From positions 715 to 64,714 of the forward strand of contig CABZAL010000004.1 in the NCBI GenBank assembly GCA_902523675.1: a stretch of 64,000 nucleotides of DNA. Reading direction: 5' to 3'. Positions 4,940 to 39,176 of this stretch are shown piece after piece. Position 1 is the stretch's first letter; each line of letters begins with the position of its first letter. The DNA comes from an uncultured Alphaproteobacteria bacterium (GTDB lineage Bacteria; Pseudomonadota; Alphaproteobacteria; Methylaequorales; Methylaequoraceae). The notes under the pieces are model-generated. The model was not told where the DNA came from, made no database searches, and saw only the letters and a program-made list of their open reading frames with translations. The translations under genes were made by a program, and so were the position numbers.

Positions 4940-5500
4940 ATGACTATTAAAGATAACAGTTGTCCAGCGTTGGTCTTAAATGCAGATTTTCAACCATTAA
5001 GTTATTTTCCATTATCAACTTGGTCTTGGCAGAATGCAATCAAGGCTGTTTTTTTGGATAGGGTAAATGTGATATCTGAATACAATGAATCTGTGAACTC
5101 TCCTTCAAAGTCGATTAAGCTTCCAAGCGTCATATCTCTAAAGGATTTTATCCCTTTGCCCTCAAAAGCAGCATTTACTAGGTTTAATGTATTTTTAAGA
5201 GATAAATTTACTTGCCAGTATTGCTTGAATATTTATAAAGCTGAAGAACTTACTTTTGATCATGTTGTACCTAAATCTAGAGGAGGAAAGACTACTTGGG
5301 AAAATGTTGTTACTTCTTGCCGAACTTGTAATACTAGAAAAGGGAGTAAATCGCTTTTAAATCTTAACATTAAACTGGCAGTAGCTCCTAGGGTCCCGAA
5401 CAATTATGAATTGAAAGATATTGGAAGGCAGTTTCCACCAAATTTTTTGCATGAAAGTTGGAATGACTTTCTTTATTGGGACTCAGAGCTTGAACCATAG
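4940..5500 (+). CDS. stand-alone HNH endonuclease
   Basis: 186 aa with CQYC...DHVVPKSRGG...N...CRTCNTRK, the HNH zinc-finger signature. Confidence 0.75.
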   Translation: MTIKDNSCPALVLNADFQPLSYFPLSTWSWQNAIKAVFLDRVNVISEYNESVNSPSKSIKLPSVISLKDFIPLPSKAAFTRFNVFLRDKFTCQYCLNIYKAEELTFDHVVPKSRGGKTTWENVVTSCRTCNTRKGSKSLLNLNIKLAVAPRVPNNYELKDIGRQFPPNFLHESWNDFLYWDSELEP

Positions 5501-8303: not shown

Positions 8304-10028
8304 ATGAAAAAAAAGATTAAGATGTCCAATAAAATTCTACTTAAAATTAAAAACCTTGTAAGGAAGAATAATATTAAAAAAGCCGATATTTTATTCAAAA
8401 GATTACTTAAAACGGATCAAAATAATAATAGTCTAAAACAATTTTATTTAGATACTTTATTCAAAGAAAAAAAATACAAAAATGTAACTTCAGTTTTTTT
8501 ATCATTATTTAAAAACACTGCAGATGAAGAAATACTAAAGATCTTTTCAATTTCATTGTTGGAGTTAAATAAGTTTCAGGAGGCAGAAATATATTTTTTA
8601 AAAATTGTTAAGATAAACGAAATTCCTGAAAATTTTTCCTTGCTCGCCATTTGTCAATCAAAACTAGGTAAAAATGAATTGGCCATAGAAAATTTTAAAA
8701 AAGCAATAAATATCGATCCAAATAATTCCAGATATATAATTAATTTAGCCAACCACTTTCGTGAGTCAAATCTAATTATTCAAGCTATTAACCTATTAAA
8801 AGATTTTAATAAATCTACAACAGATATAAATGTGTTAATCCTTCTTGTTGGTTTGCTGAGAGATATTCAAAAACACGAAGAGGCAATAGAATATTGTTCT
8901 GAAGCAATAAAAATTGAAAAGGAAAATAGCTACCTTATTCTAATTCTTGCCACACTTTTTTTGGAAAGTAATAATGTTGTTGAAGCAGAAAAGTTTTTTG
9001 AACTTTCATTAAAATATAGACCTTTTTTTGGGCCGGCTTTAAGAATGTTAAGTTTATTTAAAAAAATAGACGCTCAAATGCTGAGTGATCTCGAAAAATT
9101 TATTGAAAATTCAAAAAGTTTTGATCCTAATCTGATTCAACTAGGTCTAGCAGTCTCAAATTTCTTAGAGAAAAATAATAATTTTAAAAAAAGCTTTAAA
9201 TACCTTAAAAGGTTCAATAGTTACCAAAAGAAATTAACAAAATATAATATAAATTACTACAGAGAAAAGTTTGATAAAATTAGAAGGATTTACAGATTTT
9301 ATAAGGGACAAAAAAAACAATTAAATAAAGAAATTAAAGATGTTTGTCCAATATTTATAGTTGGATTGCCAAGATCAGGAACCTCTCTGATTGAGCAAAT
9401 TTTATCATCCAAAAAAGAAATTAAAAGTTGTGGTGAATTAACATTTCTAGATGATAATTTTTCAAAAATATTTAAATCAATAAAGGAAGAAGATATTTCA
9501 ATACGTATGCTTGAAATGTTAAGTACAACATATATAGATAATGTAGTAGAGAATCTGGAGGTCAAAGAAAAATTTTTTACTGACAAAATGCCATTAAATT
9601 TTTTTTATGTTGGAATAATAAATCTAATCTATCCAAGTTCTAAAATTATATTATGCAAGAGATCAAAAATGGATAATATTATTTCTCTTTATAGAAATTT
9701 TTTTCCTTCAGGTAATAATTTCAGTTACGACTTAAGTGACATTAATGATTTTTTAAAATTATATGATGAGGTTATTACTTACTGGAAAAAAGAGGGAATA
9801 GATTTCCACATTGTTGATTATGAAAGTTTAATTCGTGACTTCAAAACTGAAACGTCAATATTATTTAAATACTTAAATTTAGATGTGGATGACTCAATTT
9901 TAAAATTTCATAAAAATAAAAGAGTAGTACAGACTGCAAGCTTCCTTCAGGTTCGTAGACCTTTATTTAAAAGTTCTATTGATTCATGGAAAAAATATAA
10001 AGATGAAATAGGTTATTTAAATAATTAA
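8304..10028 (+). CDS. TPR-repeat protein with C-terminal sulfotransferase domain
   Basis: 574 aa. The N-terminal half looks like TPR repeats. The C-terminal half has IFIVGLPRSGTSL (PAPS 5-prime phosphosulfate-binding loop). Confidence 0.75.
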   Translation: MKKKIKMSNKILLKIKNLVRKNNIKKADILFKRLLKTDQNNNSLKQFYLDTLFKEKKYKNVTSVFLSLFKNTADEEILKIFSISLLELNKFQEAEIYFLKIVKINEIPENFSLLAICQSKLGKNELAIENFKKAINIDPNNSRYIINLANHFRESNLIIQAINLLKDFNKSTTDINVLILLVGLLRDIQKHEEAIEYCSEAIKIEKENSYLILILATLFLESNNVVEAEKFFELSLKYRPFFGPALRMLSLFKKIDAQMLSDLEKFIENSKSFDPNLIQLGLAVSNFLEKNNNFKKSFKYLKRFNSYQKKLTKYNINYYREKFDKIRRIYRFYKGQKKQLNKEIKDVCPIFIVGLPRSGTSLIEQILSSKKEIKSCGELTFLDDNFSKIFKSIKEEDISIRMLEMLSTTYIDNVVENLEVKEKFFTDKMPLNFFYVGIINLIYPSSKIILCKRSKMDNIISLYRNFFPSGNNFSYDLSDINDFLKLYDEVITYWKKEGIDFHIVDYESLIRDFKTETSILFKYLNLDVDDSILKFHKNKRVVQTASFLQVRRPLFKSSIDSWKKYKDEIGYLNN

Positions 10029-11468
10029 TTACTTTAACCAACTATATTCCTTGTTGATTTTTTGAAAAACAAAATCATAATTTCGATATTTAAGAAAATT
10101 ATTAATATTTATTGGCTCTCTTAATTGTTCATTATTTGTAGTTTGTGTATAGATTTTTTTTTTATAAAAGTTCAAGCATCTTTCTGTCCATTTAATACCA
10201 CAAAAATCAAAAATACTTTTTGTCGCTATTTTAGGATTCTTCAATAACTCCTCAAACTTTAAATTGTATATAAAATTTTGATTTTCAAATTTAAACTTAT
10301 TCATTATTTTGTAATATCTATCAAAATATTTTAAAATATCTTGCATTCTATGAGCCCATGGAACTGACATTAAATTATTTTTAAGTATTGAAATTATAGA
10401 TTCCTTAGGATCTCTGATACAATTTATTATCTTTGCATTAGGTAAGCATTTTTTTATCAGGTTTATAAATTCAAAGTTTTCTAATGACTTATCAGTAAAT
10501 CTATACTCAAAGTTGACATTTTTAATTTTTTTATAAATGTAGAGTATTTCATCTATTGATTTAATTTTTTTATTTTTAATATCAATTTTCCTTAATTTAT
10601 TGAAGAAAATTTGTGTTTCCTCTAATGACTGAACTTCAGATTCTGATGAACAAATTATTTTTTCTATTAGAGTTGAACCAGATCTCGGTAATCCGACAAT
10701 AAAAATTGGGTGAATTTTTTTTGATAATTTGGATTCAGAAATATGCTCTGTCGATTTTTTTATGTTAGCTATTTTTTTTTCGTAAGCCGAATTAAAATCA
10801 GAAAAATAAGTATTAAGCTTAAAATATAAATCGTGAGCAATTGTTAAATTTTTGATTTCTTCCTCAAAATTCTTATTTTCGTATTCAATTTTTCCCTTTA
10901 AAAAATAATAATAAACAGAATTTTCTGCATTTGGTTCAAGTTTCATTATTTTATTTAATTTCTCAACTTTTACTTTATTTTTGTTCATACGATAGGATTC
11001 ATAAAGAAATTTCAAATTATTGGGATTTTGTTTTCTTGCTTTTTCAAAGTATTTTGAAGATTTTTCAAATTTTCCTAAGTTTCTGTATATTCTTCCTAGA
11101 TTAAATAAAGCAACAAAATACTTTGGTTCTATTTGAATAATCTTTTTAAAAATTGTAATTGATAAATTTATATGTCCCTGTTTTTCGAAGAGGTTAGCTT
11201 TGTTATTAAGTAATAAAATGTTTCTAGAATCTATTTTTAAGCCTTGATTTATGACAGACATAGCTAAATCATTTTTATCCATCACCACAAGATTTGATGC
11301 AAGATTAATATAAAGATTTGTTATATTTTTATTAATTCTTATGGCTTTAATTAGTGCAATACAAGATTTATGGATTAGTCCAATTTTTTTATATTCTTGA
11401 GATAAATTAAAAAGTCTTTGAATGATTTCTAATGTATTTTGAAAATGTGATGTTGAATTGAGATACAT
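10029..11468 (-). CDS. TPR-repeat protein with C-terminal sulfotransferase domain (paralog of 8304..10028)
   Basis: 479 aa with IFIVGLPRSGSTL and FTDKS...ESIISILKN, which are collinear with the neighbouring paralog. Confidence 0.75.
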   Translation of the reverse strand: MYLNSTSHFQNTLEIIQRLFNLSQEYKKIGLIHKSCIALIKAIRINKNITNLYINLASNLVVMDKNDLAMSVINQGLKIDSRNILLLNNKANLFEKQGHINLSITIFKKIIQIEPKYFVALFNLGRIYRNLGKFEKSSKYFEKARKQNPNNLKFLYESYRMNKNKVKVEKLNKIMKLEPNAENSVYYYFLKGKIEYENKNFEEEIKNLTIAHDLYFKLNTYFSDFNSAYEKKIANIKKSTEHISESKLSKKIHPIFIVGLPRSGSTLIEKIICSSESEVQSLEETQIFFNKLRKIDIKNKKIKSIDEILYIYKKIKNVNFEYRFTDKSLENFEFINLIKKCLPNAKIINCIRDPKESIISILKNNLMSVPWAHRMQDILKYFDRYYKIMNKFKFENQNFIYNLKFEELLKNPKIATKSIFDFCGIKWTERCLNFYKKKIYTQTTNNEQLREPININNFLKYRNYDFVFQKINKEYSWLK

Positions 11469-13797: not shown

Positions 13798-13884
13798 GCC
13801 CCTATGGCGGAATTGGTAGACGCGACGGATTCAAAATCCGTTGAACTTCGGTTCATGTCCGTTCGAGTCGGACTAGGGGTACCA
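13798..13884 (+). tRNA. tRNA-Leu (anticodon CAA), class II with long variable arm, CCA encoded
   Basis: Hand-folded. The acceptor stem is GCCCCTA/TAGGGGT, the anticodon stem is ACGGA/TCCGT with loop TTCAAAA, the T-arm is GTCCG-TTCGAGT-CGGAC, and the 3-prime end is ACCA. Confidence 0.9.
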
Positions 13885-23755: not shown

Positions 23756-25234
23756 TTAAACAAATTTAATTTCAGAGCTTTCTGCAGATATTGCGTTAGC
23801 TGCGTTTTTTAAACCTCTTGGTATTGCTTCTCCGTAAAAGATTGAATGTTTATTTTTAACAATTAGTTTTAATGAATTTTTTTTAAATTTAAGATTGCAA
23901 AGTTTTAGATTCTTTGTTGAAATACCACCAGTTATGTGGTGGGCTAACCTTAAACATTGGCCAATAAATTTACACAAATTCTTTTTATCATCATCAATTT
24001 GATTGTAAAACTCTTCTACACTCTTATCCTTGATTCCATTTGAATGCCTAAAATACATAATAAAAGCTAGTTCAATTCTTTCTTTTCTAGTTATACCATA
24101 AAAAGGATACCATAAAATTCTCTCTAGACCATACATTCTCCTATGTTCAGGATGCACATCCCATGCTATATTAGATATCCAACAAGCTGACATAAGAATA
24201 TCATCACTAATATTAAAAGTGCTTGAAACATCTTTTAGCCATTTAAATAATCCATTAGCCATAGAAGATGTCATGGTTTGATCTGCCAGTCTTTGGATCT
24301 GAAAAAGAAATGCATCGTTATTTGATCCTTTGATTAAACTATTAATATATCCTTCACGAATACTAGAACTGGAAAAGTAAACATCTTTCACGTTAAAAAA
24401 TAAAATCATATGTTCTAAAACATTTAAAGCATAAGGTAATGAATTTCGTCTACTTTTTGTGATATTTAAAAGTAAGTCCGTATTAATTTTATTATTTTTC
24501 GTCACTAAGTTTTTTTTTAAAATATTTTTTATATTCTGAGATGAAATTGAAAAATCCTGTACAACTTTAAGATTTATTTTCTTTAAGAACATATATAGTC
24601 TAGCAATTACTCTAAATGAACCCCCAACAGCATAGAAGTTTCTATACCCATGATTTTTGATTTTTTTTAAACTTTTAACTATATGATCATTAACTGAATA
24701 ACTAAAGGGTTTCCCAATATTTTCTAAAAATGCATAGCCTAATTTTAAGGAGCCCAAAAAATTTATATCACCATTTACACACGTTAATTCAAGACTTCCA
24801 CCCCCGAGGTCTCCAACTATGCCGGTAACATTTTTATGACTATACAGTATTCCTAGCGCGGCAAATTTACCCTCAGATTCTTCAGAAAGAATTTTTAGGT
24901 TAACATCAAATCTATCTCTGATAATTTTTTCAATTTGAAGTCGATTCTGGGATATCCGAATGGCTGATGTGGCAAGGAATGTTGGTGTTTGACTATTCAT
25001 AGATTTAGAAATACTAACAAATCTATCCAAAACATCTAACATAAATTTAAGTTCTTTACCCTCTATTTTTGAATTAACAGCAACTACTTTTCCAAGATTA
25101 CAGATAACTTTTTCATTAAATAATGTTCTTGCTGCAACTGACAATGAATCGTAGACAACTAACCTAATAGAAAAAGATCCAATATCTATGATTGAAAATG
25201 GAGTATTCTTTATTTGATTATTTTGAATCTTCAT
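23756..25234 (-). CDS. ppx: exopolyphosphatase (Ppx/GppA family)
   Basis: 492 aa with IDIGSFSIRLVVY and GDLGGGSLE ASKHA-fold motifs. It overlaps ppk1 by 17 nt. Confidence 0.8.
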   Translation of the reverse strand: MKIQNNQIKNTPFSIIDIGSFSIRLVVYDSLSVAARTLFNEKVICNLGKVVAVNSKIEGKELKFMLDVLDRFVSISKSMNSQTPTFLATSAIRISQNRLQIEKIIRDRFDVNLKILSEESEGKFAALGILYSHKNVTGIVGDLGGGSLELTCVNGDINFLGSLKLGYAFLENIGKPFSYSVNDHIVKSLKKIKNHGYRNFYAVGGSFRVIARLYMFLKKINLKVVQDFSISSQNIKNILKKNLVTKNNKINTDLLLNITKSRRNSLPYALNVLEHMILFFNVKDVYFSSSSIREGYINSLIKGSNNDAFLFQIQRLADQTMTSSMANGLFKWLKDVSSTFNISDDILMSACWISNIAWDVHPEHRRMYGLERILWYPFYGITRKERIELAFIMYFRHSNGIKDKSVEEFYNQIDDDKKNLCKFIGQCLRLAHHITGGISTKNLKLCNLKFKKNSLKLIVKNKHSIFYGEAIPRGLKNAANAISAESSEIKFV

Positions 25235-27341
25235 TTTTCACTTTGTTTGCGCCTCTTCCAGATAGAGAAGAATTCTTTAAGAAAAATTCATGTGATGAGA
25301 ATTGTTTGCTAGAGTTTGTAATCTTCTCATAAGTACCATCTCCTTTTAATTCTGAAGTATTAGTATTATCTTTTAAATAATTAGTCATTATCTGGTCTAA
25401 AATTTGTTCATGAACTGTCTGATTAAGTATAGGTATAAAAGTTTCTACTCTTCTATCAAGATTTCGCGTCATTAAATCAGCCGATGAAATATAAACTTTT
25501 ACTTTTCTAGAAGGCATCTTATTGCCATTTGAGAAACAATAAATTCTGCTATGCTCTAAAAACCTTCCAACAATACTTCTTACTCTAATATTTTCTGAAA
25601 GGCCTTTAATTCCTGGTCTTAGTCCACAAATTCCCCTCACTATTAATTCAATTTTTACACCCATTTGGGATGCGTTATACAAGGCATCTATAATCTCAGG
25701 ATCAATGAGAGAATTTATTTTAATCCATATTCCTGAATCAAGGTTTTTTATTTTGTTAGTGACTTCTTTGTTAATTAACTCAATTAATTTTGTTCTAAGA
25801 CCAAGCGGTGAACACACTATTTGGGATAGGTTTTCTGGCTTTGCATAACCAGTTATAAAGTTAAAAATTTTTCCAGAATCTTTTCCTAATTCCTCGTTAC
25901 ATGAAAAAAATGATAAATCTGTATAAACTTTTGCCGTTAATGGATGATAATTCCCAGTTCCAAAATGATTGTACGTTATAATTTTATTTCTCTCTCTTCT
26001 TGTAACCATTGATATTTTTGCATGCGTTTTCAAACTAACAAAACCGTAAACAATCTGCACACCTGCTTTTTCTAAATCTTTTGCCCATTTGATATTTTTT
26101 TCTTCATCAAAACGAGCTTTTACTTCTATAATAGCTGTAACAGCCTTTCCATTATTTGAAGCCTCAATTAAGGCGCTTACAATTGGTGAATTATAACTTG
26201 TCCGATAAAGTGTTTGCTTTATTGAAATTACATTTGGATCATTTGCAGCTTGATTTAAAAAATTAATCACAACATCAAATGTTTCAAAAGGATGATGTAG
26301 TATCAAATCTTTTTTCTTTATAGCTTTAAAACAATCTCCAGAAAAATCTTTTATCCTTTTCGGATACCTTGGATAAAATTTTTTAAATACCAAATCTAAA
26401 TCAGCCAAATCTATAATTTGACTAACCGATTCGACATCTAGTAAAGATTTCACTTTAAACAATCCATCATCTCTTACTCCGAGTTCTTTTTTTACAAAAT
26501 TCAATAATTTTTCTCCAATATTTTCTTTAACATAAAGCCCAATAACCGAACCTAATCTTCTTTTTTTTAGAGCTATCTCAAAAGATTGCATTAAATCTTC
26601 TGCTTCTTCTTCAAACTCAATATCACTGTCTCGAATTACTCTTATTAATCCTGATTCCTGTAAATTGAATTCTGGAAAAAGCTTATGAATATTTAGTAAA
26701 ATAATATCCTCAGTACTTATAAAGGTATCTTCTTTATTATTAAGTTTAAAATACCTTTTTTGGGTTTGTGGGAAAGTTACAAGAGCTGAAACTTTTTTTT
26801 TATCTCTGTTAATTAATGAGAGTATTAATGTCAAACTTAAGTTTGGGAGAAAAGGAAAGGGATGAGCTGGGTCAATGGCAAGCGGAGTTAAAGTAGGGTA
26901 AATTTCTTCGTCAAATATATTTGAGATTTTAAAAGAAAATTTTTTCAAATCTTGTTTTGAATTAATAATTTTTAAATTGTGAAATTCCAGTTTCTTTTTA
27001 AGTGAATGCCATACATGTTGTTGTTCCTCTAACAAATCTTTCATACTAAAAATTACATCTAGAAGTTGCTGACGAGGTGTTCTGCCGTCAGAGCTTTTTT
27101 CTTCAATATTTTCTCGAATCTGTCTTGCAATTCCAGCTACTCTGACCATGTGAAATTCGTCAAGATTATTTCCTGAAATTGATAAAAATCTTAATCTCTC
27201 TAAAATTGGGTAATTTTTATTTTTTGCCTCATTCAAGACTCTTCTGTTAAAAGAAAGCCATGAAAGCTCTCTATTTATAAATCTTTTTTCATCGTACTTA
27301 CTAATATTTTCATTCAAATCTAAACTATCGGCATTAGACAT
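25218..27341 (-). CDS. ppk1: polyphosphate kinase 1
   Basis: 707 aa with FINRELSWLSFNRRVLNEA and two PLD-like HxK modules. Confidence 0.9.
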   Translation of the reverse strand: MSNADSLDLNENISKYDEKRFINRELSWLSFNRRVLNEAKNKNYPILERLRFLSISGNNLDEFHMVRVAGIARQIRENIEEKSSDGRTPRQQLLDVIFSMKDLLEEQQHVWHSLKKKLEFHNLKIINSKQDLKKFSFKISNIFDEEIYPTLTPLAIDPAHPFPFLPNLSLTLILSLINRDKKKVSALVTFPQTQKRYFKLNNKEDTFISTEDIILLNIHKLFPEFNLQESGLIRVIRDSDIEFEEEAEDLMQSFEIALKKRRLGSVIGLYVKENIGEKLLNFVKKELGVRDDGLFKVKSLLDVESVSQIIDLADLDLVFKKFYPRYPKRIKDFSGDCFKAIKKKDLILHHPFETFDVVINFLNQAANDPNVISIKQTLYRTSYNSPIVSALIEASNNGKAVTAIIEVKARFDEEKNIKWAKDLEKAGVQIVYGFVSLKTHAKISMVTRRERNKIITYNHFGTGNYHPLTAKVYTDLSFFSCNEELGKDSGKIFNFITGYAKPENLSQIVCSPLGLRTKLIELINKEVTNKIKNLDSGIWIKINSLIDPEIIDALYNASQMGVKIELIVRGICGLRPGIKGLSENIRVRSIVGRFLEHSRIYCFSNGNKMPSRKVKVYISSADLMTRNLDRRVETFIPILNQTVHEQILDQIMTNYLKDNTNTSELKGDGTYEKITNSSKQFSSHEFFLKNSSLSGRGANKVKNEDSK

Positions 27342-27383: not shown

Positions 27384-29174
27384 TTAATAAATATCTCTTA
27401 GATATCTTTTCTCACGTTTAAGATTATTCATATATTCGTTGGTTTTATCATCGTTTAGTTTACTAGATTTCTGAATTAAATTATACAAAGCTTTGTCTAC
27501 GTCTCTAGCCATATAATTAGCATCGCCGCAAACGTAAACGTAAGCGCCATTTTCTATCCAGTCAAATAATTCTTTTGAAGATTCTAACATTCGATGTTGT
27601 ACATAAATTTTTTCTTTTTGATCCCTTGAAAAAGCTAAATCAAGCTTTGTCAAAATTCCATCTTTTTTAAAATCACTAATTTCTTTTTCGTAAATAAAAT
27701 CATTATTTCTGGTTTGATCTCCAAAAAATAACCAATTTTTTCCACTACCCCCTCTTAACCTTCTATCTTGTAAAAAAGCCCTAAATGGTGCAACACCAGT
27801 ACCAGGCCCAATCATAACGATTGGAATAGAATTATCTTCAGGTAATCTAAATGAGTGATTTTGACTTACAAATATTCCAGCATTATCTATAGTTTCTTCA
27901 GAATTAGAAAGAAAATTAGAACATACTCCTTCATGAACTCTTTGCGAATATTCCCATTTAACGGTAGAAACTGTTAAATGGACTTGATCTTTATACATTT
28001 TTTGGCTTGATGATATAGAGTAAGCCCTAGGTTGTAATGGTTTTAATAAACTCAAGAATTCATCAGGTGGAATTGAAACATTATTATCCAAATTCAGAAG
28101 ATCAAGCACATCCTTACCCCACAAAAAAGAATCAAATTCTTTACTATTTCCAGATTCTAGGAGTCTTTGCATCTTACTAATTTTTGAATTTCCTAATATA
28201 TAGTTAACCAAATCTTTACTAGGTGAGAGTATTTCATACTTATTCATTAGAAGATAATGAATAGTATTTTGAAATCCGGAGGGTTTAAAGTTATTATTTA
28301 ATTTTAGTTTTTTTAGAATCTCTCCTACAAGTGTTCTTGAATTTGTTGGAAATACGTTAAGGGTATCGCCGACTTCGTATCGAATTCCACTTTCTGCCAA
28401 CTCTATTTCATAATGTCTAATTTCTTTATTTGATTTATTACCTGACAGTAACAAATTTGCTGAGATTTCTGCAAAATATGGGTTTTTTTTGCTCCAAGAA
28501 AATAATTCTTCTTTAGTATTTTTTTCTGTAACATTTAATTCTTTAAGCCCACCAAAAGATGGAAGAGTAGATTTTAGCCACTCATTAGAAGGAATTTCGT
28601 AATCAACGTCGCAATCAATTCTTTTACTAACTCTTTTTGCCCCTAACTGCTCTAATCGAAAATCCAACAGTTTTCCTGCATTACAGAACATTTCATAACT
28701 AGTATCACCTAATGAAATTACTCCGAAACTTAAATTATTAAGTTTCGGGGCAATCTCTGAAGACAAAGACTCCCAAAATAATTGTGCGCCGTCAGGCATC
28801 TCCCCCTCACCATAGGTGGAAATCACAAAAACAGCTTTTTCCATTTCTTGTAATTGATCCATCGAAACATCATCCAGAGATAAGAGATTGCTATCAAAGT
28901 TATTTTTTGAAGCTAAATCTGCTGCATTCCTCGCTAGTGACTCTGAATTTCCTGTTTGTGTTCCATATAGAAAATTTATTTTAACTTTTTCAGTTTCTTT
29001 GGGAAAATTTTTATTGTTAAAATTCTCTTTGATACCAGCTAAAAAACCAGAAATCCACTGTTTTTGATTTGAAGAAAATGGAGCTTTATCGGGGAAGAAA
29101 GGAGTATCTCCGATATTTTTTTCTCCAGCAATCTTTTCTGCATTTTTTAAATTTATAGATTTATTTTTCGACAT
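27384..29174 (-). CDS. CysJ-type NADPH diflavin reductase (flavodoxin-like FMN domain plus FNR-like FAD/NADPH domain)
   Basis: 596 aa with LYGTQTGNSE, STYGEGEMPDG, RAYSISSS, GPGTGVAPFRAF, YVCGD and the C-terminal RYLRDIY. It starts 32 nt downstream of the GltB-like gene. Confidence 0.85.
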   Translation of the reverse strand: MSKNKSINLKNAEKIAGEKNIGDTPFFPDKAPFSSNQKQWISGFLAGIKENFNNKNFPKETEKVKINFLYGTQTGNSESLARNAADLASKNNFDSNLLSLDDVSMDQLQEMEKAVFVISTYGEGEMPDGAQLFWESLSSEIAPKLNNLSFGVISLGDTSYEMFCNAGKLLDFRLEQLGAKRVSKRIDCDVDYEIPSNEWLKSTLPSFGGLKELNVTEKNTKEELFSWSKKNPYFAEISANLLLSGNKSNKEIRHYEIELAESGIRYEVGDTLNVFPTNSRTLVGEILKKLKLNNNFKPSGFQNTIHYLLMNKYEILSPSKDLVNYILGNSKISKMQRLLESGNSKEFDSFLWGKDVLDLLNLDNNVSIPPDEFLSLLKPLQPRAYSISSSQKMYKDQVHLTVSTVKWEYSQRVHEGVCSNFLSNSEETIDNAGIFVSQNHSFRLPEDNSIPIVMIGPGTGVAPFRAFLQDRRLRGGSGKNWLFFGDQTRNNDFIYEKEISDFKKDGILTKLDLAFSRDQKEKIYVQHRMLESSKELFDWIENGAYVYVCGDANYMARDVDKALYNLIQKSSKLNDDKTNEYMNNLKREKRYLRDIY

Positions 29175-29206
29175 TTTTCTGTACTCAATAATAAAATGGT
29201 AACGAT

Positions 29207-32200
29207 CTAACTATTTACAACTAAATCTGAAAGTATTTGATTGCAAAAGAGTTCTTCGTAATCTGGTATTTTATGCATCGCTGTAATATTTTTTCTATCT
29301 TGGTGGATAATCCATCCGTAAGTACTCAAACTTTCCATACCTAAAACATTTCTTAAAGTTAAAGCTTTTTTGAAATCATTCAATCTTTTATTAGCTATCA
29401 TAACGGCAAGTTCTTTGTCGGAATAATGGGAGATTGCCTCTCTCGAATGTTTTAGTAAACTATTCATTAGTTTGAAATCTTCAGTTAATATTAAGTTTTG
29501 AACAACCTCATTTATTTCAAGATCACTAACTTGATTTTCGGTCTTAGAGTTTTTCAATGCAATTTTTTGCGCAGAATCAAGGACCATCCAATTATTTAGA
29601 AGTTCATATTTTTTAATAGAATTACTTTGTTTTTTTCTTGGCACTTCTCCCATTAAAATTTTTTCTCCCTTGCGCCAAGCTTTTTTGAATTTTTCAATTT
29701 GAAACACAGACATAGCTTCAGAAAGTTCTTCAATTAAATCTTTTCTTGTCTTACTTTCTAAAATACTTTCATAATCTTGATACTGTAAAAATGCTTTTGG
29801 AGTAATTATAGCCATATTGTACTTTTCAACTGACCAATTTTTTAATATATATTTTACTTTTTTTGAATCAGTAGCATACAAATGCCAATTTAAAAGATTA
29901 AAAATTGTGTCTTCGTGCATTCTAGATATTTCTGATTTCTTGTTGAGATAATTTAAAAACACTGATTCTTTACTTATGTTATCGCCAAGTAACCTAAGGG
30001 GATCATATTGATAAGCAAAACCACCAGACATTCCATTCCCGAAACCCCTTGAAAATTTTCCTAAATTTAGAATCGTCCCGTTTGTCATATATTCAGCACA
30101 ATATTCTCCAACACCCTCGATTACAGAGACTGCTCCAGAATTCCTTACAGCAAATCTGTCGCCGGCTTGTCCCTCAACAAACAGTTTACCTCCTGTAGAT
30201 CCAAACAGAGCAAAGTTTCCTATTAACACTTGTCTGCCTTTATCTTTTGAATTAATGCATGGATTTTTAATAATGATCTCTCCACCACAAGATGATTTCC
30301 CGACACCATCATTACATGTGCCAGTATGAATTAACTTCATACCATTATTACAAAATGCTCCAAATGATTGACCAGCTGATCCTTTTGTTTGAATTGTAAT
30401 TGTATCTTTGTCTAAAAAATTTCTTCCTGTTTTAGATTTAAAAACGCAATTGAATTTAAGCTTGGCTTTTTCATGATTTATTAATCTTTCAATATCAATT
30501 GAAAGCTGTCCGCCAAAAGTTTTGTTTCTGTTACTTAGAGTCAGGCCTTTACCTAAATCTATATTTCTAGAATTTTTAGAAAATAAGTTTTTCTTTACTA
30601 GATTATAAAATTTATCGTCAATGGAAAAATCTTTTTCTAAATAAATTGGACTCTTAACTTTTTTGGTTTTAATTTCTTTTAACATGTCCCGCAAATCAAC
30701 TTCACCAACTGTTGAACTTGAATTCGTCAAATGAAGAAGATTTGTATGTCCTCTTATTTTTTTTAGAGATTTGAAACCAATTTTTGCCAATATTTCTCGC
30801 ACTTCATGGGCCACGTTTAAATAAAACTGAGCAAGTGCTCTAGCGTCTCCGTTGAAGACTTCAGCATTTGTAGTAAGACCTGCTGGACATTTAATGTTAC
30901 AATTTTTAGCCATAACACATTTCATCATCATCATTGCAGTAGTACCAAACTCAAAACTATCAGCACCCAGTATTGCAGATTTAATTACATCACTTCCCGT
31001 CTGATGGGCACCAGAACACCTTAGTAAAACTTTTTCTCGTAAATTATTAGCACATAAAGCCTGATGAACTTCACTCAATCCAATCTCAACTGCACGTCCT
31101 GCATACTTAAGAGAAGTAACGTTTGCCGCACCTGTACCCCCAGTATTCCCAGCGATATTTATTACATCGGCTCCAGCTTTTGCTACACCAACCGCAATCG
31201 TTCCAATCCCTACAGAGGATACTAACTTTACAATAACTCGTACCTTCGCTGCTTTTGCATCATGAATAAGTTGAGCCAGATCTTCTATTGAATATGTATC
31301 ATGATGAGGAGGGGGTGAGACTAATTCAACTCCAGGTGTTCCATTTCGAGCAGCCGCAATTTCGACATTTACCTTAGCAGCTGGCAGTTGTCCACCTTCT
31401 CCAGGTTTTGCACCCTGTGCTATTTTTATTTCAATTTCTTCTAGCATTGGATCTGCTAAATATCCCGCCCATACACCGAAACGTCCTGATGCCAACTGTT
31501 TTATTTTAGATGCTCTAATAGTTCCATATCTTGACATATGTTCTCCACCCTCACCACTATTCGAAAAAGCACCAACCATATTAGTTCCATGAGCAATTGC
31601 TTCATGTGCTGATGAGACTAAAGCCCCGTGACTCATTGCACCCGATGTAAAGGTTTTTGTAATTTCGCTTGCCCTCTGAACTTGTTTCAAATTAATTGGG
31701 TCTGATGAAGAAAGAATTTTAGATAAAAATTCTTGAGCATCTGAGTTGGCTTCCAATAAAATATTTTTTTCACTGACTTCTTTTATTTTTATTTTTCTTT
31801 TAAACACTCCTTGAAGTGCCTTTGAAAACTCTAAATGCTTAGAATATTTCTTATGAACTTCGCATTTTAAACTCAGTGAAAAAAAATTATGTTTATTACT
31901 AATGACTAAATTTTGAAATAAAAAATTATTGTTTCCTTTTTTTGAGAAAAGTTTTATTTTTCCCAAAAAGTCATCTCTTGTTTCCAACTTTCCAAGATCA
32001 ATAGGAAATGATAAGATATCTCTCAAAGCAACTGGTCTTAATTCCCTTTCATTTTTTAACATTTTAGAAAATGAACGATAACCGGGTGTTACTTTGAATT
32101 TATTAATTTGCTGATTGTTTAGTTTTTCGAAGTTAGTATTCTTAAAATCTTTGTCACTTAGGCCAAATGAGTTGTACATCTTATTAAGAGTTAATAAACG

Positions 32201-34663
32201 CATATTCTCTTGATGGTCTTCAAGTTTATTTCTCTTAAAAAAAATCTTCTCGTCAGTCATTTCTAGAAACCCTCTTACAGCAGTTAATCCATACGAGTGT
32301 CCAGCTCCTTCTGCTCTTTCCTTAAATAATCCAACTATAGGAATTTCAGATTCGTCAGAGACTTCTTTTGATTTGGAATGCCAATTTACTATACTTTGAG
32401 CTATGTCAGAAAAACCAACACCACCAACAGGTGAGGAAATATTTGGAAAAAACTGTTTTAAAGTTAGATCATTAGTGTTTAAAAAATTGGATTCGAAAAA
32501 TTCTCCACCTGAATAGCTTTCAACAGTGCAAAGTCCAACTTTTCCCATAATTTTCATAAGAGACTTTTCACAGGCCTTTTTAAAGTTTTCTTGTGATTTT
32601 TGTTTATTTTTGTGGAATTTATCATTACTTCTCATTTCAGAACAAATAGAATAAACTGCAGAACCACCAAATCCAAGTGCACATGCTACATGGTGTGGAG
32701 AAGAAATCTGTCCACTTTCAACAATTATTGATGTTTTAAATCTTAACCCAGCTGAAATTAAACTTTGATTGATAGCTGAGACAGTCAATATCATTGGAAT
32801 CGCCGCGCGCTTTGAACTTACACTTCTATCACTCAACACTACAATCCCACCACCTGAAGATACAAAATTGTTAACCTTTTGTGATAATTTTTTTAATGCA
32901 ATCACAAGAGCTTTTTCATTTTCTTTAGAATTTTTGTAATTTGGTTTATATGTAAAATCAAAGCACTCTATAGGTAGTAGTTTTTGATTTTTTAATACGT
33001 TTAAGTCCTTTTCTAGAAGAATGGGCGAATCCAAAACAATTTGAGGAACCATATCTGTTTTTAAATTAACTTTGGGACCCAGTGCCATTCGCAATGTCAT
33101 TCCATCCGACTCTCTGATTGGATCTAATGGGGGGTTCGTAACTTGAGAAAACCTATGGGAAAAAAATTTGGCCATCCCCCCTTCCGACTCGGACAATGCA
33201 TTTATTGCATTTCCATATCCCATAGCTGAAACTTTTTCTACACCGTTTTCTAGTATAGGATCAATTAAAAATTTTAAACTTTCTTGGTTTTGGTAATAAG
33301 CAACATATCTTCCTGCATTTACTAAATCTGCTTCATAGTTTTCAAAAGTTGCCGACTCGTTTATGTTAATATCAGATAATTTTATGGCATGCTTTTTTAA
33401 CAATTCTATATAGTCTCTTTTTTTTGCAAGCATAGAATATGTATCGCCTGTATCAAATAGTTTCTTTTTTTCGTGATCATAATAAAAAATCCCACCAGCT
33501 TCTATTCTACCTCTTTTAACAACACTGGATTCTGGAAAATTAATTTGACCAGCTTCTGACATAACTGAAACATATTTATGAGTTTCAACTGTTCTTAAGG
33601 GGCGTAACCCAAGTCTATCTAAGCAAGCACCAATAATTACACCGTCTCCAAAAATCACAGCCGCTGGTCCATCATTTTTCTCTTCATATAAGGAAAAAAA
33701 CTCAAACATAGATCTTATTTTTTTTGATAACTTTTTATTATTCTCCCATGCTGGTGGCATCATACAAACTATTGCTGACACAATATCTAAATCTTCTTCA
33801 GCAATTCGATTTTTTAAAGTCTGGTCAAACCGACAACTATCAGATTGTCCTGCTGGTCTTACGATATTTTTTTGCCTTGCTTTAAAAATAGCGTTTTCTG
33901 ATAATCTATTTTTATTATCAGTATTAAGTTCTCCATTATGCGCCATCATCCTAAATGGTTGTGCCATAGAAGGGTGTGGATCGGTATTAGTTGAAAATCT
34001 TGTATGAAAATATAGAGAATGAATCTTTTGATTTTTATTTTGTAGATCTAAAAAATAAGGAATTAATTCATTGGAATTAAGTCTGCCCTTTAAAACTTGA
34101 ACTTTTGTTGAAAGTGATAATGGATATAGTCCTTGCAATTTTTTTGATTGAAAAGCAATCTGCTCTATATCAAGAAGTGCCTCATGAGTAACACCTTCGA
34201 CATCTGAGGAATTTAAATTTATGGGTGTTTCAAAAATCCATTGTTTTATTAAAAGTTGTACATTTCTTGAAGCTGGAGTTAAACATTTATAATTAACAGG
34301 AATCATTCTTGACATGATTAGTTTCATACCTTTATTTTTTAAGGTATTTTCAATTAGATCTTGAGCATCAGAATGATATCTCTTTTGGTCGGGAAGAAAA
34401 AAGTTTCCAACACAAAATTTTTCAGGTTTAAGTTTTTTCGATGTGATCTCTCTAAAAAAATTTGTAGATAGGTCAATACAAATACCAGCTCCGTCGCCAA
34501 CACCTTCTGAAGACATACCTCCTCTATGAGGTACTGAACATAGTGCTTCATGTGCATATTTCAAAATTTTATGAGATTGTTTTCCATCTTTTCGTGTCAA
34601 GAATCCAACCCCACAACTACTTTTTTCTATGCTATCATCATATAGTCCAAACTTCTTTTTCAT
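29207..34663 (-). CDS. gltB: glutamate synthase large-subunit-like protein, oversized (1818 aa)
   Basis: It carries SSCGVGF, HTRFSTNT and AHNGELNT (Ntn amidotransferase domain). It carries GAMSHGAL, SNSGEGGE, ASGRFGV, KIAQGAKPGEGGQLP and SPPPHHDTYSIEDL (FMN domain). It has the cysteine cluster KCVMAKNCNIKCPAG, and GSAGQSFGAF and GDRFAVRNSGA (GXGXG domain). Confidence 0.85.
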   Translation of the reverse strand: MKKKFGLYDDSIEKSSCGVGFLTRKDGKQSHKILKYAHEALCSVPHRGGMSSEGVGDGAGICIDLSTNFFREITSKKLKPEKFCVGNFFLPDQKRYHSDAQDLIENTLKNKGMKLIMSRMIPVNYKCLTPASRNVQLLIKQWIFETPINLNSSDVEGVTHEALLDIEQIAFQSKKLQGLYPLSLSTKVQVLKGRLNSNELIPYFLDLQNKNQKIHSLYFHTRFSTNTDPHPSMAQPFRMMAHNGELNTDNKNRLSENAIFKARQKNIVRPAGQSDSCRFDQTLKNRIAEEDLDIVSAIVCMMPPAWENNKKLSKKIRSMFEFFSLYEEKNDGPAAVIFGDGVIIGACLDRLGLRPLRTVETHKYVSVMSEAGQINFPESSVVKRGRIEAGGIFYYDHEKKKLFDTGDTYSMLAKKRDYIELLKKHAIKLSDININESATFENYEADLVNAGRYVAYYQNQESLKFLIDPILENGVEKVSAMGYGNAINALSESEGGMAKFFSHRFSQVTNPPLDPIRESDGMTLRMALGPKVNLKTDMVPQIVLDSPILLEKDLNVLKNQKLLPIECFDFTYKPNYKNSKENEKALVIALKKLSQKVNNFVSSGGGIVVLSDRSVSSKRAAIPMILTVSAINQSLISAGLRFKTSIIVESGQISSPHHVACALGFGGSAVYSICSEMRSNDKFHKNKQKSQENFKKACEKSLMKIMGKVGLCTVESYSGGEFFESNFLNTNDLTLKQFFPNISSPVGGVGFSDIAQSIVNWHSKSKEVSDESEIPIVGLFKERAEGAGHSYGLTAVRGFLEMTDEKIFFKRNKLEDHQENMRLLTLNKMYNSFGLSDKDFKNTNFEKLNNQQINKFKVTPGYRSFSKMLKNERELRPVALRDILSFPIDLGKLETRDDFLGKIKLFSKKGNNNFLFQNLVISNKHNFFSLSLKCEVHKKYSKHLEFSKALQGVFKRKIKIKEVSEKNILLEANSDAQEFLSKILSSSDPINLKQVQRASEITKTFTSGAMSHGALVSSAHEAIAHGTNMVGAFSNSGEGGEHMSRYGTIRASKIKQLASGRFGVWAGYLADPMLEEIEIKIAQGAKPGEGGQLPAAKVNVEIAAARNGTPGVELVSPPPHHDTYSIEDLAQLIHDAKAAKVRVIVKLVSSVGIGTIAVGVAKAGADVINIAGNTGGTGAANVTSLKYAGRAVEIGLSEVHQALCANNLREKVLLRCSGAHQTGSDVIKSAILGADSFEFGTTAMMMMKCVMAKNCNIKCPAGLTTNAEVFNGDARALAQFYLNVAHEVREILAKIGFKSLKKIRGHTNLLHLTNSSSTVGEVDLRDMLKEIKTKKVKSPIYLEKDFSIDDKFYNLVKKNLFSKNSRNIDLGKGLTLSNRNKTFGGQLSIDIERLINHEKAKLKFNCVFKSKTGRNFLDKDTITIQTKGSAGQSFGAFCNNGMKLIHTGTCNDGVGKSSCGGEIIIKNPCINSKDKGRQVLIGNFALFGSTGGKLFVEGQAGDRFAVRNSGAVSVIEGVGEYCAEYMTNGTILNLGKFSRGFGNGMSGGFAYQYDPLRLLGDNISKESVFLNYLNKKSEISRMHEDTIFNLLNWHLYATDSKKVKYILKNWSVEKYNMAIITPKAFLQYQDYESILESKTRKDLIEELSEAMSVFQIEKFKKAWRKGEKILMGEVPRKKQSNSIKKYELLNNWMVLDSAQKIALKNSKTENQVSDLEINEVVQNLILTEDFKLMNSLLKHSREAISHYSDKELAVMIANKRLNDFKKALTLRNVLGMESLSTYGWIIHQDRKNITAMHKIPDYEELFCNQILSDLVVNS

Positions 34664-34787: not shown

Positions 34788-35444
34788 CTAGTTGTCAATA
34801 ATCATGGTCTTATCATATGATATCTTTCCCATAGTTTCTGAATCTGATGTTTCTTCTCTGATATATTTAACAATTCCAAAATCTCTAGAATACCAAGTTT
34901 CTATTGAAACTTCTATTTTTATATTGCTTAAGGGGGGGCCAGGATTAAAACTAGTCATTCCACGACTTGATATTTTTATACAATTTTTGATCTTTTTTCC
35001 ATTTATTGAAACGGTATCATTTGTTTTTTCAATTATGTTTTCTAACTCCAATGGCAAATTAGTGTTATAAACTCTGTCATATCCTAATTTCATTTGCAAA
35101 GTTGTTTTATCATTGGTTTTCCATTTTGTTCCAACTTCAACAGGAAATGCCAAGACAATTTTTGAAATACTATTATTTAAAGTTTTTTTTATTATCCCAT
35201 TTTCATTTTGTGAAAAAAAAAATACCTCTCCATCATTTTTTAAAACAGGTAATAGATTATTTGAAATAGATAAAAAAGATAAACTCTGTCTGTAAACATT
35301 TCGTTTGTTTTCTTTATCCAGAAAAATAACCTCATAAAAGAGTGTTTTTCCTTGAGATTTTTCCAAAAAACTCATCTCACTCTTACATGAAAGAATAAAG
35401 AAAAAAATCAAAATAAATGAATTATAAAATATTTTACTCTGCAT
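34788..35444 (-). CDS. hypothetical lipoprotein
   Basis: 218 aa with a signal peptide ending in a lipobox-like FILSC. Confidence 0.4.
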   Translation of the reverse strand: MQSKIFYNSFILIFFFILSCKSEMSFLEKSQGKTLFYEVIFLDKENKRNVYRQSLSFLSISNNLLPVLKNDGEVFFFSQNENGIIKKTLNNSISKIVLAFPVEVGTKWKTNDKTTLQMKLGYDRVYNTNLPLELENIIEKTNDTVSINGKKIKNCIKISSRGMTSFNPGPPLSNIKIEVSIETWYSRDFGIVKYIREETSDSETMGKISYDKTMIIDN

Positions 35445-36182: not shown

Positions 36183-36698
36183 TCAAAACGGAATTTGATA
36201 TTTGAGCACCAGAGTTTCTGAGCCTGGGTTTCTATATCCACTGTCAGCATTGGATATATGAAATATTCCTGCTCCTAAACGAACATTATTTTTGAATCTA
36301 TAAAATAAATCAATGCCAATATAAAATTCCATATGATTTCCAGCTTTTATTTCACTGCCATCTTTGTAATATCCACATGCAACACTGGGCGTTAGGATAA
36401 TATTTTTTTTCTTTGTGTAGTAACCATCAATTCCAAAACCTCCATAAGCATAATAAGTTCCGGCAGAAGTTCCCAAAAATCCCAAAAAAGGTTTAATTAT
36501 GTTGAATACTTTTTTTCCACTATGTACTTCTAAATTTAACATCTCTGAAGTTTTGTTATAAGGGCCAGTTCCATCCTCCATAAAATTGAATTGTCCGACT
36601 CCAACTGAAATTCTATGATTATTGTCTTTTGATTTTAAAGGAGAAGAAAAAAGAAAAATAAATAAAAAAAGTAAATTTTTCATAAAGCTATTTATCAT
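36183..36698 (-). CDS. PagL-like lipid A deacylase / acyloxyacyl hydrolase outer-membrane barrel
   Basis: 171 aa with a signal peptide. FHISNADSGYRNPGSE gives an H-x-S...E spacing consistent with the PagL His-Ser-Glu triad as I recall it. Confidence 0.65.
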   Translation of the reverse strand: MINSFMKNLLFLFIFLFSSPLKSKDNNHRISVGVGQFNFMEDGTGPYNKTSEMLNLEVHSGKKVFNIIKPFLGFLGTSAGTYYAYGGFGIDGYYTKKKNIILTPSVACGYYKDGSEIKAGNHMEFYIGIDLFYRFKNNVRLGAGIFHISNADSGYRNPGSETLVLKYQIPF

Positions 36699-37204
36699 CT
36701 GCTGAGTGGTATTTGATATTTAAATATTATTTGTTCTGATCCAGGGTTCCTGTATCCCAAACCTGCATTAGAAATATGAAAAACTCCTAACCCTACTCTA
36801 ACATTGTTTCTAAATCTGTAAGTAACATCTCCACCGCTTCTAAATTCCATTGTATGGCCGAGTCGAATATCATCTCCATCTGAATATGTGCCAACCGCCA
36901 AACTGGGAGTCAATACAACACACTTACATTTTAAAAAGTATAAATCACTGCTTAATCCAAAATATCCATAATATGCTGATTCTGTTGTTCCTAAGAAACC
37001 TATTAACGGCTTCAAAAAATTAAAATATTTTCTTCCAGAAAATAATTCTACATTGTATCCTGTAGAAGATGAATTAAATGGCTTGCTTCCATGTTCCAAA
37101 AAATTGTAAATTCCAGATCCGATAGACAATTTAGGATTTTGATCTTTTGAAGCTAGTCTATCTACAGGGATTAATAACAAAATTATTAAAAAAAAAAAAA
37201 TCAT
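36695..37204 (-). CDS. PagL-like lipid A deacylase / acyloxyacyl hydrolase (tandem paralog)
   Basis: 169 aa with VFHISNAGLGYRNPGSE. It overlaps the downstream paralog by 4 nt. Confidence 0.65.
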   Translation of the reverse strand: MIFFFLIILLLIPVDRLASKDQNPKLSIGSGIYNFLEHGSKPFNSSSTGYNVELFSGRKYFNFLKPLIGFLGTTESAYYGYFGLSSDLYFLKCKCVVLTPSLAVGTYSDGDDIRLGHTMEFRSGGDVTYRFRNNVRVGLGVFHISNAGLGYRNPGSEQIIFKYQIPLSR

Positions 37205-38757: not shown

Positions 38758-39096
38758 TTATGAACCTTTCCCAGGGTTTGGGCTAAAATGTTCTTTAAAT
38801 TTATTCTTCACTCCATTCCATTTATCGCTGTCAGACGGGGGGGTACCCATTTTAGAAATATTAGGCCATTTTTCAGCATATTCTTTATTAATTTCCAGCC
38901 ACTTATCTGCATCATCACAGGTATCGTCACTTATGGCCTCTGCTGGGCATTCAGGTTCACAAACACCGCAATCTATGCATTCATCAGGATGTATTACTAA
39001 AAAATTTTCTCCTTCATAAAAACAATCAACAGGACAAACTTCCACACAATCCATATACTTACATTTAATACAATTGTCTTTAACTATATAGGGCAT
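38758..39096 (-). CDS. fdxA: 7Fe ferredoxin (3Fe-4S plus 4Fe-4S)
   Basis: [29 protein letters not shown] and [12 protein letters not shown]. The track ORF starts 18 codons upstream, but the ATG at 39096 gives the canonical N-terminus. Confidence 0.85.
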
Positions 39097-39176
39097 AATT
39101 AATCTAGTACCAATCTCGATTGATGTCTTATATAACAACTTTCTCATCACTCTTCAAGATATTCAATATAATATAT

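Follow-up and report, generated by a model that had tools for sequence, protein, structure and literature searches.

The stretch of DNA analysed here, hereafter called the window, comprises 64,000 nucleotides (nt) of contig CABZAL010000004.1 (positions 715 to 64,714 of the forward strand, GenBank assembly GCA_902523675.1) of an uncultured alphaproteobacterium. It is AT-rich, with a G+C content of ~29%. Two genes lie one after the other on the minus strand of the window. The upstream gene encodes a long protein of the type of the glutamate synthase (GOGAT) large subunit GltB and is referred to as GltB-long. The downstream gene encodes a reductase of the type of CysJ that contains domains for flavin mononucleotide (FMN), flavin adenine dinucleotide (FAD), and nicotinamide adenine dinucleotide phosphate (NADPH). 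An initial annotation of the window had described the former as an open reading frame (ORF) of 1818 amino acids (aa) with the four GltB domains in canonical order, and the latter as a 596-aa flavodoxin/FAD/NADPH protein that begins 32 nt further on in the same strand. The coordinates and the Pfam scan agree with both descriptions: each of the four domains scored above its cut-off, and the Pfam E-values of the two proteins ranged from 1e-14 to 1e-107. All motif strings quoted in that annotation were found in the two translations, and Cys17 is preceded by a 16-aa leader. The annotation had also noted that GltD-like and CysI-like ORFs are missing from the window. In line with this, tblastn with the E. 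coli GltD and CysI proteins as queries returned nothing credible from the 64-kb window, the best match (E 0.07) being an unrelated amine-oxidase-like flavoprotein.

Table 1. The gene pair and its domains. Positions are those of the window; Ntn, N-terminal nucleophile.
Feature	Position	Strand	Basis or remark
Long GltB-type glutamate synthase large subunit, 1818 aa	29207-34663	minus	Pfam, NCBIfam, and PDB matches
Ntn glutaminase domain, aa 17-420	33404-34615	minus	GATase_2 3.9e-87
Central domain, aa 454-725	32489-33304	minus	Glu_syn_central 6.2e-73
Family-specific insert, aa 886-982	31718-32008	minus	No E. coli counterpart; small alpha/beta domain, predicted
FMN/2-oxoglutarate domain, aa 959-1297	30773-31789	minus	Glu_synthase 2.3e-107
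Cys triad C1249/C1255/C1259, presumed 3Fe-4S ligands	30887-30919	minus	Alignment to 1LLW C1137/C1143/C1148
GXGXG beta-helix domain, aa 1405-1578	29930-30451	minus	GXGXG 3.4e-51
Family-specific C-terminal helical extension, aa 1642-1818	29210-29740	minus	No E. coli counterpart
Intergenic spacer between GltB-long and reductase, 32 nt	29175-29206	minus	
CysJ-like diflavin reductase, 596 aa	27384-29174	minus	Pfam; proposed NADPH electron-input subunit
Flavodoxin-like FMN domain, aa 69-191	28602-28970	minus	Flavodoxin_1 1.5e-30; YGTQTGNSE, STYGEGE
FAD-binding domain, aa 228-421	27912-28493	minus	FAD_binding_1 2.1e-29; RAYSISSS
NADPH-binding domain, aa 454-560	27495-27815	minus	NAD_binding_1 5e-14; GPGTGVAPFRAF

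GltB-long matches the GltB and GltS chains in the PDB with E-values of ~1e-217 to 1e-221, and its identity to E. coli GltB is ~30-40%. It also passes the NCBIfam equivalog model for the glutamate synthase large subunit, NF008730, but narrowly (1078.6 bits vs a cut-off of 1047). Relatives of full length (1800-1870 aa) are numerous and bear the name "glutamate synthase-related protein" or "large subunit". The whole family keeps the cysteine nucleophile of the glutaminase (in the motif CGVGF) together with HRGG and HNGE. Likewise, an alignment to the Synechocystis enzyme (1LLW_A) found that the 2-oxoglutarate/FMN residues E903, Q969, K972, Q978, and R992 (Synechocystis numbering) are all kept. 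The alignment of the FMN domain further revealed that the ferredoxin-loop insertion of the ferredoxin-dependent enzyme (Fd-GOGAT; 1LLW ~907-933) is missing from GltB-long. The three cysteines of the presumed cluster site align to their 1LLW counterparts with a one-residue gap. In other words, the cysteines of GltB-long are spaced as C-x5-C-x3-C, which is invariant in the family, whereas the canonical C-x5-C-x4-C is one residue longer.

GltB-long has ~330 aa beyond a canonical GltB, which are distributed between an insert that separates the central and FMN domains and a C-terminal extension. The insert is ~100 aa long, of which aa 886-982 are the main block, and AlphaFold2 models it as a small alpha/beta domain with a predicted local distance difference test (pLDDT) score of 80. 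The ~175-aa extension is modeled as all-helical (pLDDT 82). Fold searches against the PDB gave no significant match for the extension or the insert, and for the latter none at E < 0.1.

Does a large subunit with these additions still make glutamate? The initial annotation had left two options, either a GOGAT with a third mode of electron supply or a GOGAT-derived enzyme with a different reaction. The conserved glutaminase nucleophile, 2-oxoglutarate/FMN residues, and cluster cysteines favor real GOGAT chemistry, and with it the former option. In the latter, the protein would carry out another reductive amidotransfer, with a different keto-acid acceptor or amide donor, and the reductase would supply the electrons. 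The family does stand apart as a clade of its own that has two additional domains and a changed cysteine spacing, NF008730 is passed only marginally, and many hosts presumably have a canonical gltBD as well, so that the pair would be free to take on a new function. A change of reaction is nevertheless unlikely, given that the glutaminase residues and all five 2-oxoglutarate/FMN residues are kept and that, as described below, the pair stands in for gltBD at the same locus in Erwiniaceae.

The downstream protein belongs to the diflavin reductase superfamily (cytochrome P450 reductase (CPR), CysJ, and methionine synthase reductase (MSR) type), as judged from the motifs YGTQTGNSE, STYGEGE, RAYSISSS, and GPGTGVAPFRAF and from the terminal aromatic residue, the Y of a C-terminus that reads RYLRDIY. 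It is ~35% identical to E. coli CysJ and retains a CysJ-type N-terminal segment. However, all six partner reductases that were scored, the window protein among them, failed the curated equivalog models for cysJ. Against TIGR01931 (cut-off 668 bits), the window reductase scored 593.9 and five other partners scored 562-617; against NF008197 (cut-off 838 bits), the corresponding scores were 464.9 and 446-507. Of the five partners from outside the window, three exceeded the cut-off of NF004859, on the strength of the FAD/NADPH half alone, and the window reductase and the partner from Ketogulonicigenium vulgare fall just below it. NCBI names the partners 'sulfite reductase subunit alpha', probably because of this partial match to NF004859. 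Going by these scores, the partner is best regarded as CysJ-like but not as a bona fide CysJ.

How constant is the association of the two genes? An alignment of the C-terminal extension was scanned against one genome per GTDB species and matched 398 genomes. The best 80 of these matches were examined as loci with 10-kb flanks. A homolog of the window reductase (44-95% identity) lies directly downstream of GltB-long, in the same strand, at all 80 loci, and neither a GltD nor a CysI homolog occurs within 10 kb of the pair at any of them. The adjacency is thus kept in related genomes, a point that the initial annotation had set as a check. Two phyla and four classes are represented among the 80 loci: Alphaproteobacteria (Rhizobiaceae, Agrobacterium, Brucella, Rhodobacteraceae, and marine metagenome-assembled genomes (MAGs)), Betaproteobacteria (Methylobacillus), Gammaproteobacteria (Porticoccaceae/SAR92, Pantoea, and Winslowiella), and Mycobacteriales. 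Separate look-ups found the same arrangement in a Tara contig, Agrobacterium pusense, Methylobacillus flagellatus, and another metagenome lineage, and on plasmids of K. vulgare and Tsukamurella. Flanking genes are kept only inside lineages and differ between them, indicating that the pair itself is the conserved unit. The spacers between GltB-long and the reductase in relatives are mostly -4 to +30 nt. Furthermore, pairwise identities among the GltB-long proteins are correlated with those among the reductases (r = 0.95 between the two matrices; 64 loci). In the loci examined, the pairing is obligate and not a product of chance.

The opposite view would be that the adjacency is meaningless. The reductase would then be the CysJ of a sulfite reductase whose CysI is encoded at a distance, and GltB-long would use a GltD encoded elsewhere. 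The database name of the partner, its ~35% identity to E. coli CysJ, and the CysJ-type N-terminal segment agree with such a view. It is close to refuted by the adjacency at 80 of 80 loci in two phyla whose flanks are otherwise unrelated, by spacers that are short or overlapping, by the co-variation of the two proteins and their fusion in one lineage (below), by the failure of all scored partners to reach the curated cysJ cut-offs, and by the absence of cysI within 10 kb from every locus.

Further evidence for a partnership comes from gene fusion. A profile of the C-terminal extension, run against 1.84 billion representative proteins, matched almost only fragments of long GltBs. One match, P0260 (L093:1-1868; L numbers denote loci) from a Lentisphaeraceae MAG, has a GXGXG domain and extension that run into the CysJ N-terminal motif and a flavodoxin domain. 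The same in-frame junction, with all four of these elements in one reading frame, is present in P0350 (L094), which comes from an independent assembly (an 81-kb long-read contig) and is 62% identical to P0260. The whole 7.3-kb region of that contig (L094:5504-12942) reads as one GltB-long::reductase gene, which is split in the gene calls by assembly frameshifts. An in-frame fusion in two Lentisphaerae-type assemblies is classic evidence that the partnership is both physical and functional. A second apparent match in the middle of a protein, P0258, resembles a frame-shifted translation and was dropped.

The position of the pair in some genomes speaks to its function. In Candidatus Pantoea multigeneris, Candidatus Pantoea astica, and Winslowiella arboricola (L076, L081, and L086), the pair comes after mtgA-arcZ-arcB. 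In E. coli, the site beside arcB is occupied by yhcC-gltB-gltD. The identity of the Erwiniaceae site was established by an Rfam match to arcZ (75 bits) and by the ArcB-specific transmembrane domain of the adjoining kinase. The pair has taken the place of gltBD at this locus in all three of these Erwiniaceae, which argues that it performs the GOGAT function. In Porticoccaceae (L012-L035 and L055), hemE lies downstream of the pair in 22 loci, 21 of which also have aroK-aroB upstream. This is probably also the position of gltBD in Pseudomonas aeruginosa.

Domain architecture, residue conservation, obligate pairing, fusion, and the locus replacement in Erwiniaceae are direct observations. The initial annotation had proposed that the diflavin reductase is the dedicated partner of the GltB-like enzyme, and this proposal is supported by the adjacency at all 80 loci, the fusions, the spacers, the co-variation, and the Erwiniaceae replacement. 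The reading that best suits these data, to which we assign a probability of about 0.78, is that the pair codes for a glutamate synthase of an undescribed type, which consists of two subunits, depends on NADPH, and is fed by a diflavin reductase.

In such an enzyme, glutamine would be hydrolyzed at the N-terminal cysteine of GltB-long and the ammonia would be channeled to the FMN site of the same subunit, where the 2-iminoglutarate formed from it would be reduced to glutamate. Electrons would travel from NADPH to the FAD and then the FMN of the reductase, and from there, as single electrons leaving the reductase FMN, to the [3Fe-4S] cluster and the FMN of GltB-long. The electron source would thus be a dedicated CysJ-type reductase, and not GltD, with its FAD and two 4Fe-4S clusters, or free ferredoxin. 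Going by published potentials, a path from the semiquinone/hydroquinone couple of the CysJ FMN to the GltB cluster and FMN would run downhill. The ~100-aa insert and the ~175-aa helical extension are likely to be docking surfaces for the reductase, because they are specific to the family and because of the fusion junction: in the fused Lentisphaerae form, the extension passes straight into the N-terminus of the reductase.

How does this arrangement compare with known systems? The textbook picture of GOGAT recognizes two forms of electron supply, either GltD (or a GltD-like domain) or ferredoxin. The NADPH-GOGAT formed by GltB and GltD (E. coli and Azospirillum brasilense, PDB 1EA0, 2VDC, and 6S6S; Bacillus subtilis, 7MFM) shares with the window system the four domains, the Ntn cysteine, the FMN/2-oxoglutarate residues, and the Cys triad. 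It also shares the use of a pyridine nucleotide as the electron source, as indicated by the NADPH-type domain, and a gene order with the reductase downstream. The window system differs in that its reductase is a diflavin protein free of Fe-S clusters instead of GltD, and in that its large subunit has the insert, the C-terminal extension, and the C-x5-C-x3-C spacing. Fd-GOGAT (Synechocystis GlsF, PDB 1LLW and 1OFD) is a single large subunit with a 3Fe-4S cluster and FMN, to which a small carrier from outside delivers electrons one at a time, as a flavodoxin-like domain is proposed to do for GltB-long, and no GltD accompanies either protein. However, the window protein is missing the ferredoxin loop, and its donor would be an NADPH reductase of its own that is encoded next to it and in some cases fused to it, whereas the donor of Fd-GOGAT is free ferredoxin.

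On the side of the reductase, CysJ (which works with CysI) has the same domain order, the same FMN, FAD, and NADPH motifs, the C-terminal aromatic residue, and the N-terminal segment. Unlike CysJ, the window reductase stays under the TIGR01931 and NF008197 cut-offs, and its relatives at the 80 loci are always found beside GltB-long and never beside cysI. Moreover, the acceptor proposed here is a 3Fe-4S flavoenzyme, and that of CysJ is a sirohaem protein. The closest conceptual precedent is NasN of mycobacteria (Tan et al. 2020, JBC, as cited in PMC10704036), which is reportedly a monomeric diflavin-containing assimilatory nitrate reductase. Like the window system, NasN is a redox enzyme of nitrogen assimilation with a recruited module of the CysJ/CPR type as its NAD(P)H input. 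Its catalytic partner, however, is a molybdopterin enzyme to which the module is fused, whereas the system described here mostly consists of two genes. The eukaryotic and fungal NADH-dependent GOGAT resembles the Lentisphaerae form in that the large subunit and the reductase are in one polypeptide. The fused reductase of the former is GltD-like and has Fe-S clusters, and that of the latter is a diflavin protein. No description of a GltB/diflavin pairing was found in searchable full texts, which are mostly without the subscription journals.

What might be gained by exchanging GltD for a diflavin protein? Since the reductase is without an Fe-S cluster, the iron cost per protomer would be 3 Fe compared with 11 for GltBD, and the enzyme would likely be an iron-sparing GOGAT. 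Where a canonical GltBD coexists, as in Actinobacteria, iron starvation would induce the pair. In iron-poor marine lineages, including the alphaproteobacterium of the window and SAR92/Porticoccaceae, the pair may instead be the standing GOGAT. An iron-sparing response that turns canonical gltBD down has been described in Caulobacter (PMC3751524) and for IsrR of Staphylococcus aureus (PMC9410917).

Evidence for a link to iron comes first from Actinobacteria. The loci were scanned for IdeR boxes with the consensus TTAGGTTAGGCTAACCTAA, allowing up to 5 mismatches; the matches had 3-5 mismatches, and the best had 3. A site resembling an IdeR box was found 57-156 nt upstream of GltB-long in five Mycobacterium/Mycolicibacterium loci (L052, L070, L073, L080, and L084, at ~5000-5040) and in Tsukamurella (L092, at 3991). 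There were no such matches anywhere else in these 18-20-kb loci, and L084 has two overlapping matches at the site. These sites suggest that expression is iron-repressed in the Mycobacteriales loci.

Neighboring genes also point to iron. A divergent gene of the HemS/ChuX family, whose members degrade or traffic haem, directly follows the reductase, in the same strand, at 15 of the 80 genome loci (L029, L030, L039, L044, L047, L049, L052, L057, L069, L070, L072, L073, L079, L082, and L084) and on the two plasmids (L091:11274-12191 and L092:11480-12292). The resulting three-gene unit occurs in Alphaproteobacteria and Actinobacteria, and the HemS-like gene is missing from the window. On the conjugative IncP-type plasmid 1 of K. 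vulgare WSH-001 (L091, 225568-244119), the pair and the HemS-like gene next to it are followed, in the same strand, by genes for an AraC regulator, a TonB-dependent siderophore receptor, and an fhu-type ATP-binding cassette transporter. In Methylobacillus, FecI- and FecR-type genes and a TonB-dependent receptor gene are located just upstream in the same strand. Other genes nearby include those for a FecCD-type transporter in L082, fumC downstream of the pair in L079, and a suf operon in L005.

Could the HemS-like gene be the actual partner of the reductase? The reductase might be a general-purpose enzyme or serve haem degradation by HemS/ChuS, while GltB-long is fed by ferredoxin or flavodoxin; the linkage would then reflect co-regulation under iron stress, and the two proteins would not form a complex. 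A P450-reductase-type donor can indeed drive ChuS-type haem degradation in vitro, and a gene for a 7Fe-type ferredoxin is located ~4 kb upstream in the window (38758-39150). Yet HemS is missing in the window and in 65 of the 80 loci, all of which have the GltB-reductase pairing, one lineage has GltB-long and the reductase as a single fused protein, GltB-long is without the ferredoxin-binding loop of Fd-GOGAT, and the ferredoxin neighbor is restricted to the window and one close relative (L001). This explanation is improbable, marginally more so than a change of reaction in GltB-long.

For the proposed diflavin-fed glutamate synthase, an iron-sparing role is graded by lineage: it is likely in Actinobacteria and plausible outside them. 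A more sweeping proposal would make the pair a third class of GOGAT, with an iron-free diflavin input that lowers the cost from 11 to 3 Fe. In Actinobacteria it would be an isozyme for iron starvation under the control of IdeR. In abundant marine bacteria that are limited by iron (SAR92/Porticoccaceae, the Planktomarina MAG L060, and the streamlined alphaproteobacterium of the window), it would be the main and possibly the only GOGAT. This proposal as a whole is tentative, and we put it slightly below even odds.

Several points weigh against the picture drawn above. The electron path is deduced from domain logic and gene association. The cysteine spacing, shorter by one residue than the canonical one, could change the cluster. 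The loci examined are the best 80 of the 398 matches, the other 318 being more distant. Isolates such as those of Agrobacterium and Mycobacterium probably carry a canonical gltBD too. As for iron, a search for Fur boxes in the 400 nt upstream of the pair at 73 loci gave best matches with 6-10 mismatches, no better than shuffled sequences, so that Fur control in Proteobacteria, including the window, is unsupported. Likewise, the iron control element (ICE) boxes recognized by Irr showed no enrichment in Alphaproteobacteria, with 1 upstream match compared with 2.5 expected. The neighbors of the pair in the window are ppk1/ppx and lipopolysaccharide (LPS) genes, not iron genes.

Other regulatory signals were also sought. 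Rfam gave no riboswitch or leader upstream of either the window pair or the pairs of 7 loci, and in DNA this AT-rich a scan of the window for sigma-70 promoters and terminators did not outperform shuffles. Good matches to a sigma-54 promoter (TGGCAC-N5-TTGCT) were found only in three of the five Methylobacillus loci (L045, L056, and L059), ~160-190 nt upstream of GltB-long, which hints at nitrogen control in Methylobacillus but not in general. Rhizobiaceae have in common an upstream ORF of 32 aa, which is conserved, and hairpins rich in GC between a major facilitator superfamily gene and GltB-long (L002:7787-7885 and the aligned region in L064-L087). Their predicted folding was no better than that of shuffles (z = -0.34), and they were dropped.

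Outside the pair, the window carries the housekeeping genes of an ordinary chromosome, such as those for aconitase and LPS, the ccm genes, argG, folD, trpE, ppk1, and ppx. Two of its genes were compared with those of L009, a contig of the single-cell genome AG-337-E20, and showed 95-98% protein identity. Next to the reductase, ppk1 (707 aa) and ppx (492 aa) occupy positions 23756-27341 (minus strand) and follow it in the same strand after a 42-nt gap. The gap has no terminator-like site. The near-identical L009 alone shares the linkage, which relatives of 70% identity lack. Directly upstream of GltB-long, a 218-aa ORF (34788-35444, minus strand) has neither a Pfam nor an NCBIfam match, and an unannotated gene takes the equivalent position in L001. 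Two more ORFs are without a Pfam match, one of 289 aa (3371-4240, plus strand) and one of 471 aa (54434-55849, minus strand).

A few features of the window that lie away from the pair may be recorded as well. Tandem paralogs of a PagL-like lipid A deacylase (36183-37204, minus strand) are found beside a GmhA-like SIS gene and a tRNA, and the Tara relative L001 has the same arrangement. Two convergent genes (8304-10028, plus strand, and 10029-11468, minus strand) each encode tetratricopeptide repeats fused to a sulfotransferase domain. A borderline tRNA match (13805-13863, plus strand; 29.1 bits compared with a gathering score of 29) covers model positions 8-63 and may be a tRNA fragment.

GOGAT is the central point at which nitrogen enters biomass, and a widespread third mode of electron supply, through a CysJ-type reductase, would widen the textbook picture of this enzyme. 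The family, with members that are fusion proteins, is spread over 398 genomes at the species level or more. The pair would offer a clear example from nature of an Fe-S electron module that has been swapped for a flavin one, in parallel with the replacement of ferredoxin by flavodoxin. There would also be a consequence for annotation, in that many genes called 'cysJ' in genomic and metagenomic data would not be genes of sulfur assimilation; in metabolic reconstructions the reductase probably counts as cysJ, and this would produce false signals of sulfate assimilation. If the iron-sparing role is true, the pair would add a new member to the IdeR regulon of Actinobacteria and, in marine bacteria, connect limitation by iron with limitation by nitrogen at a molecular level that is open to testing.

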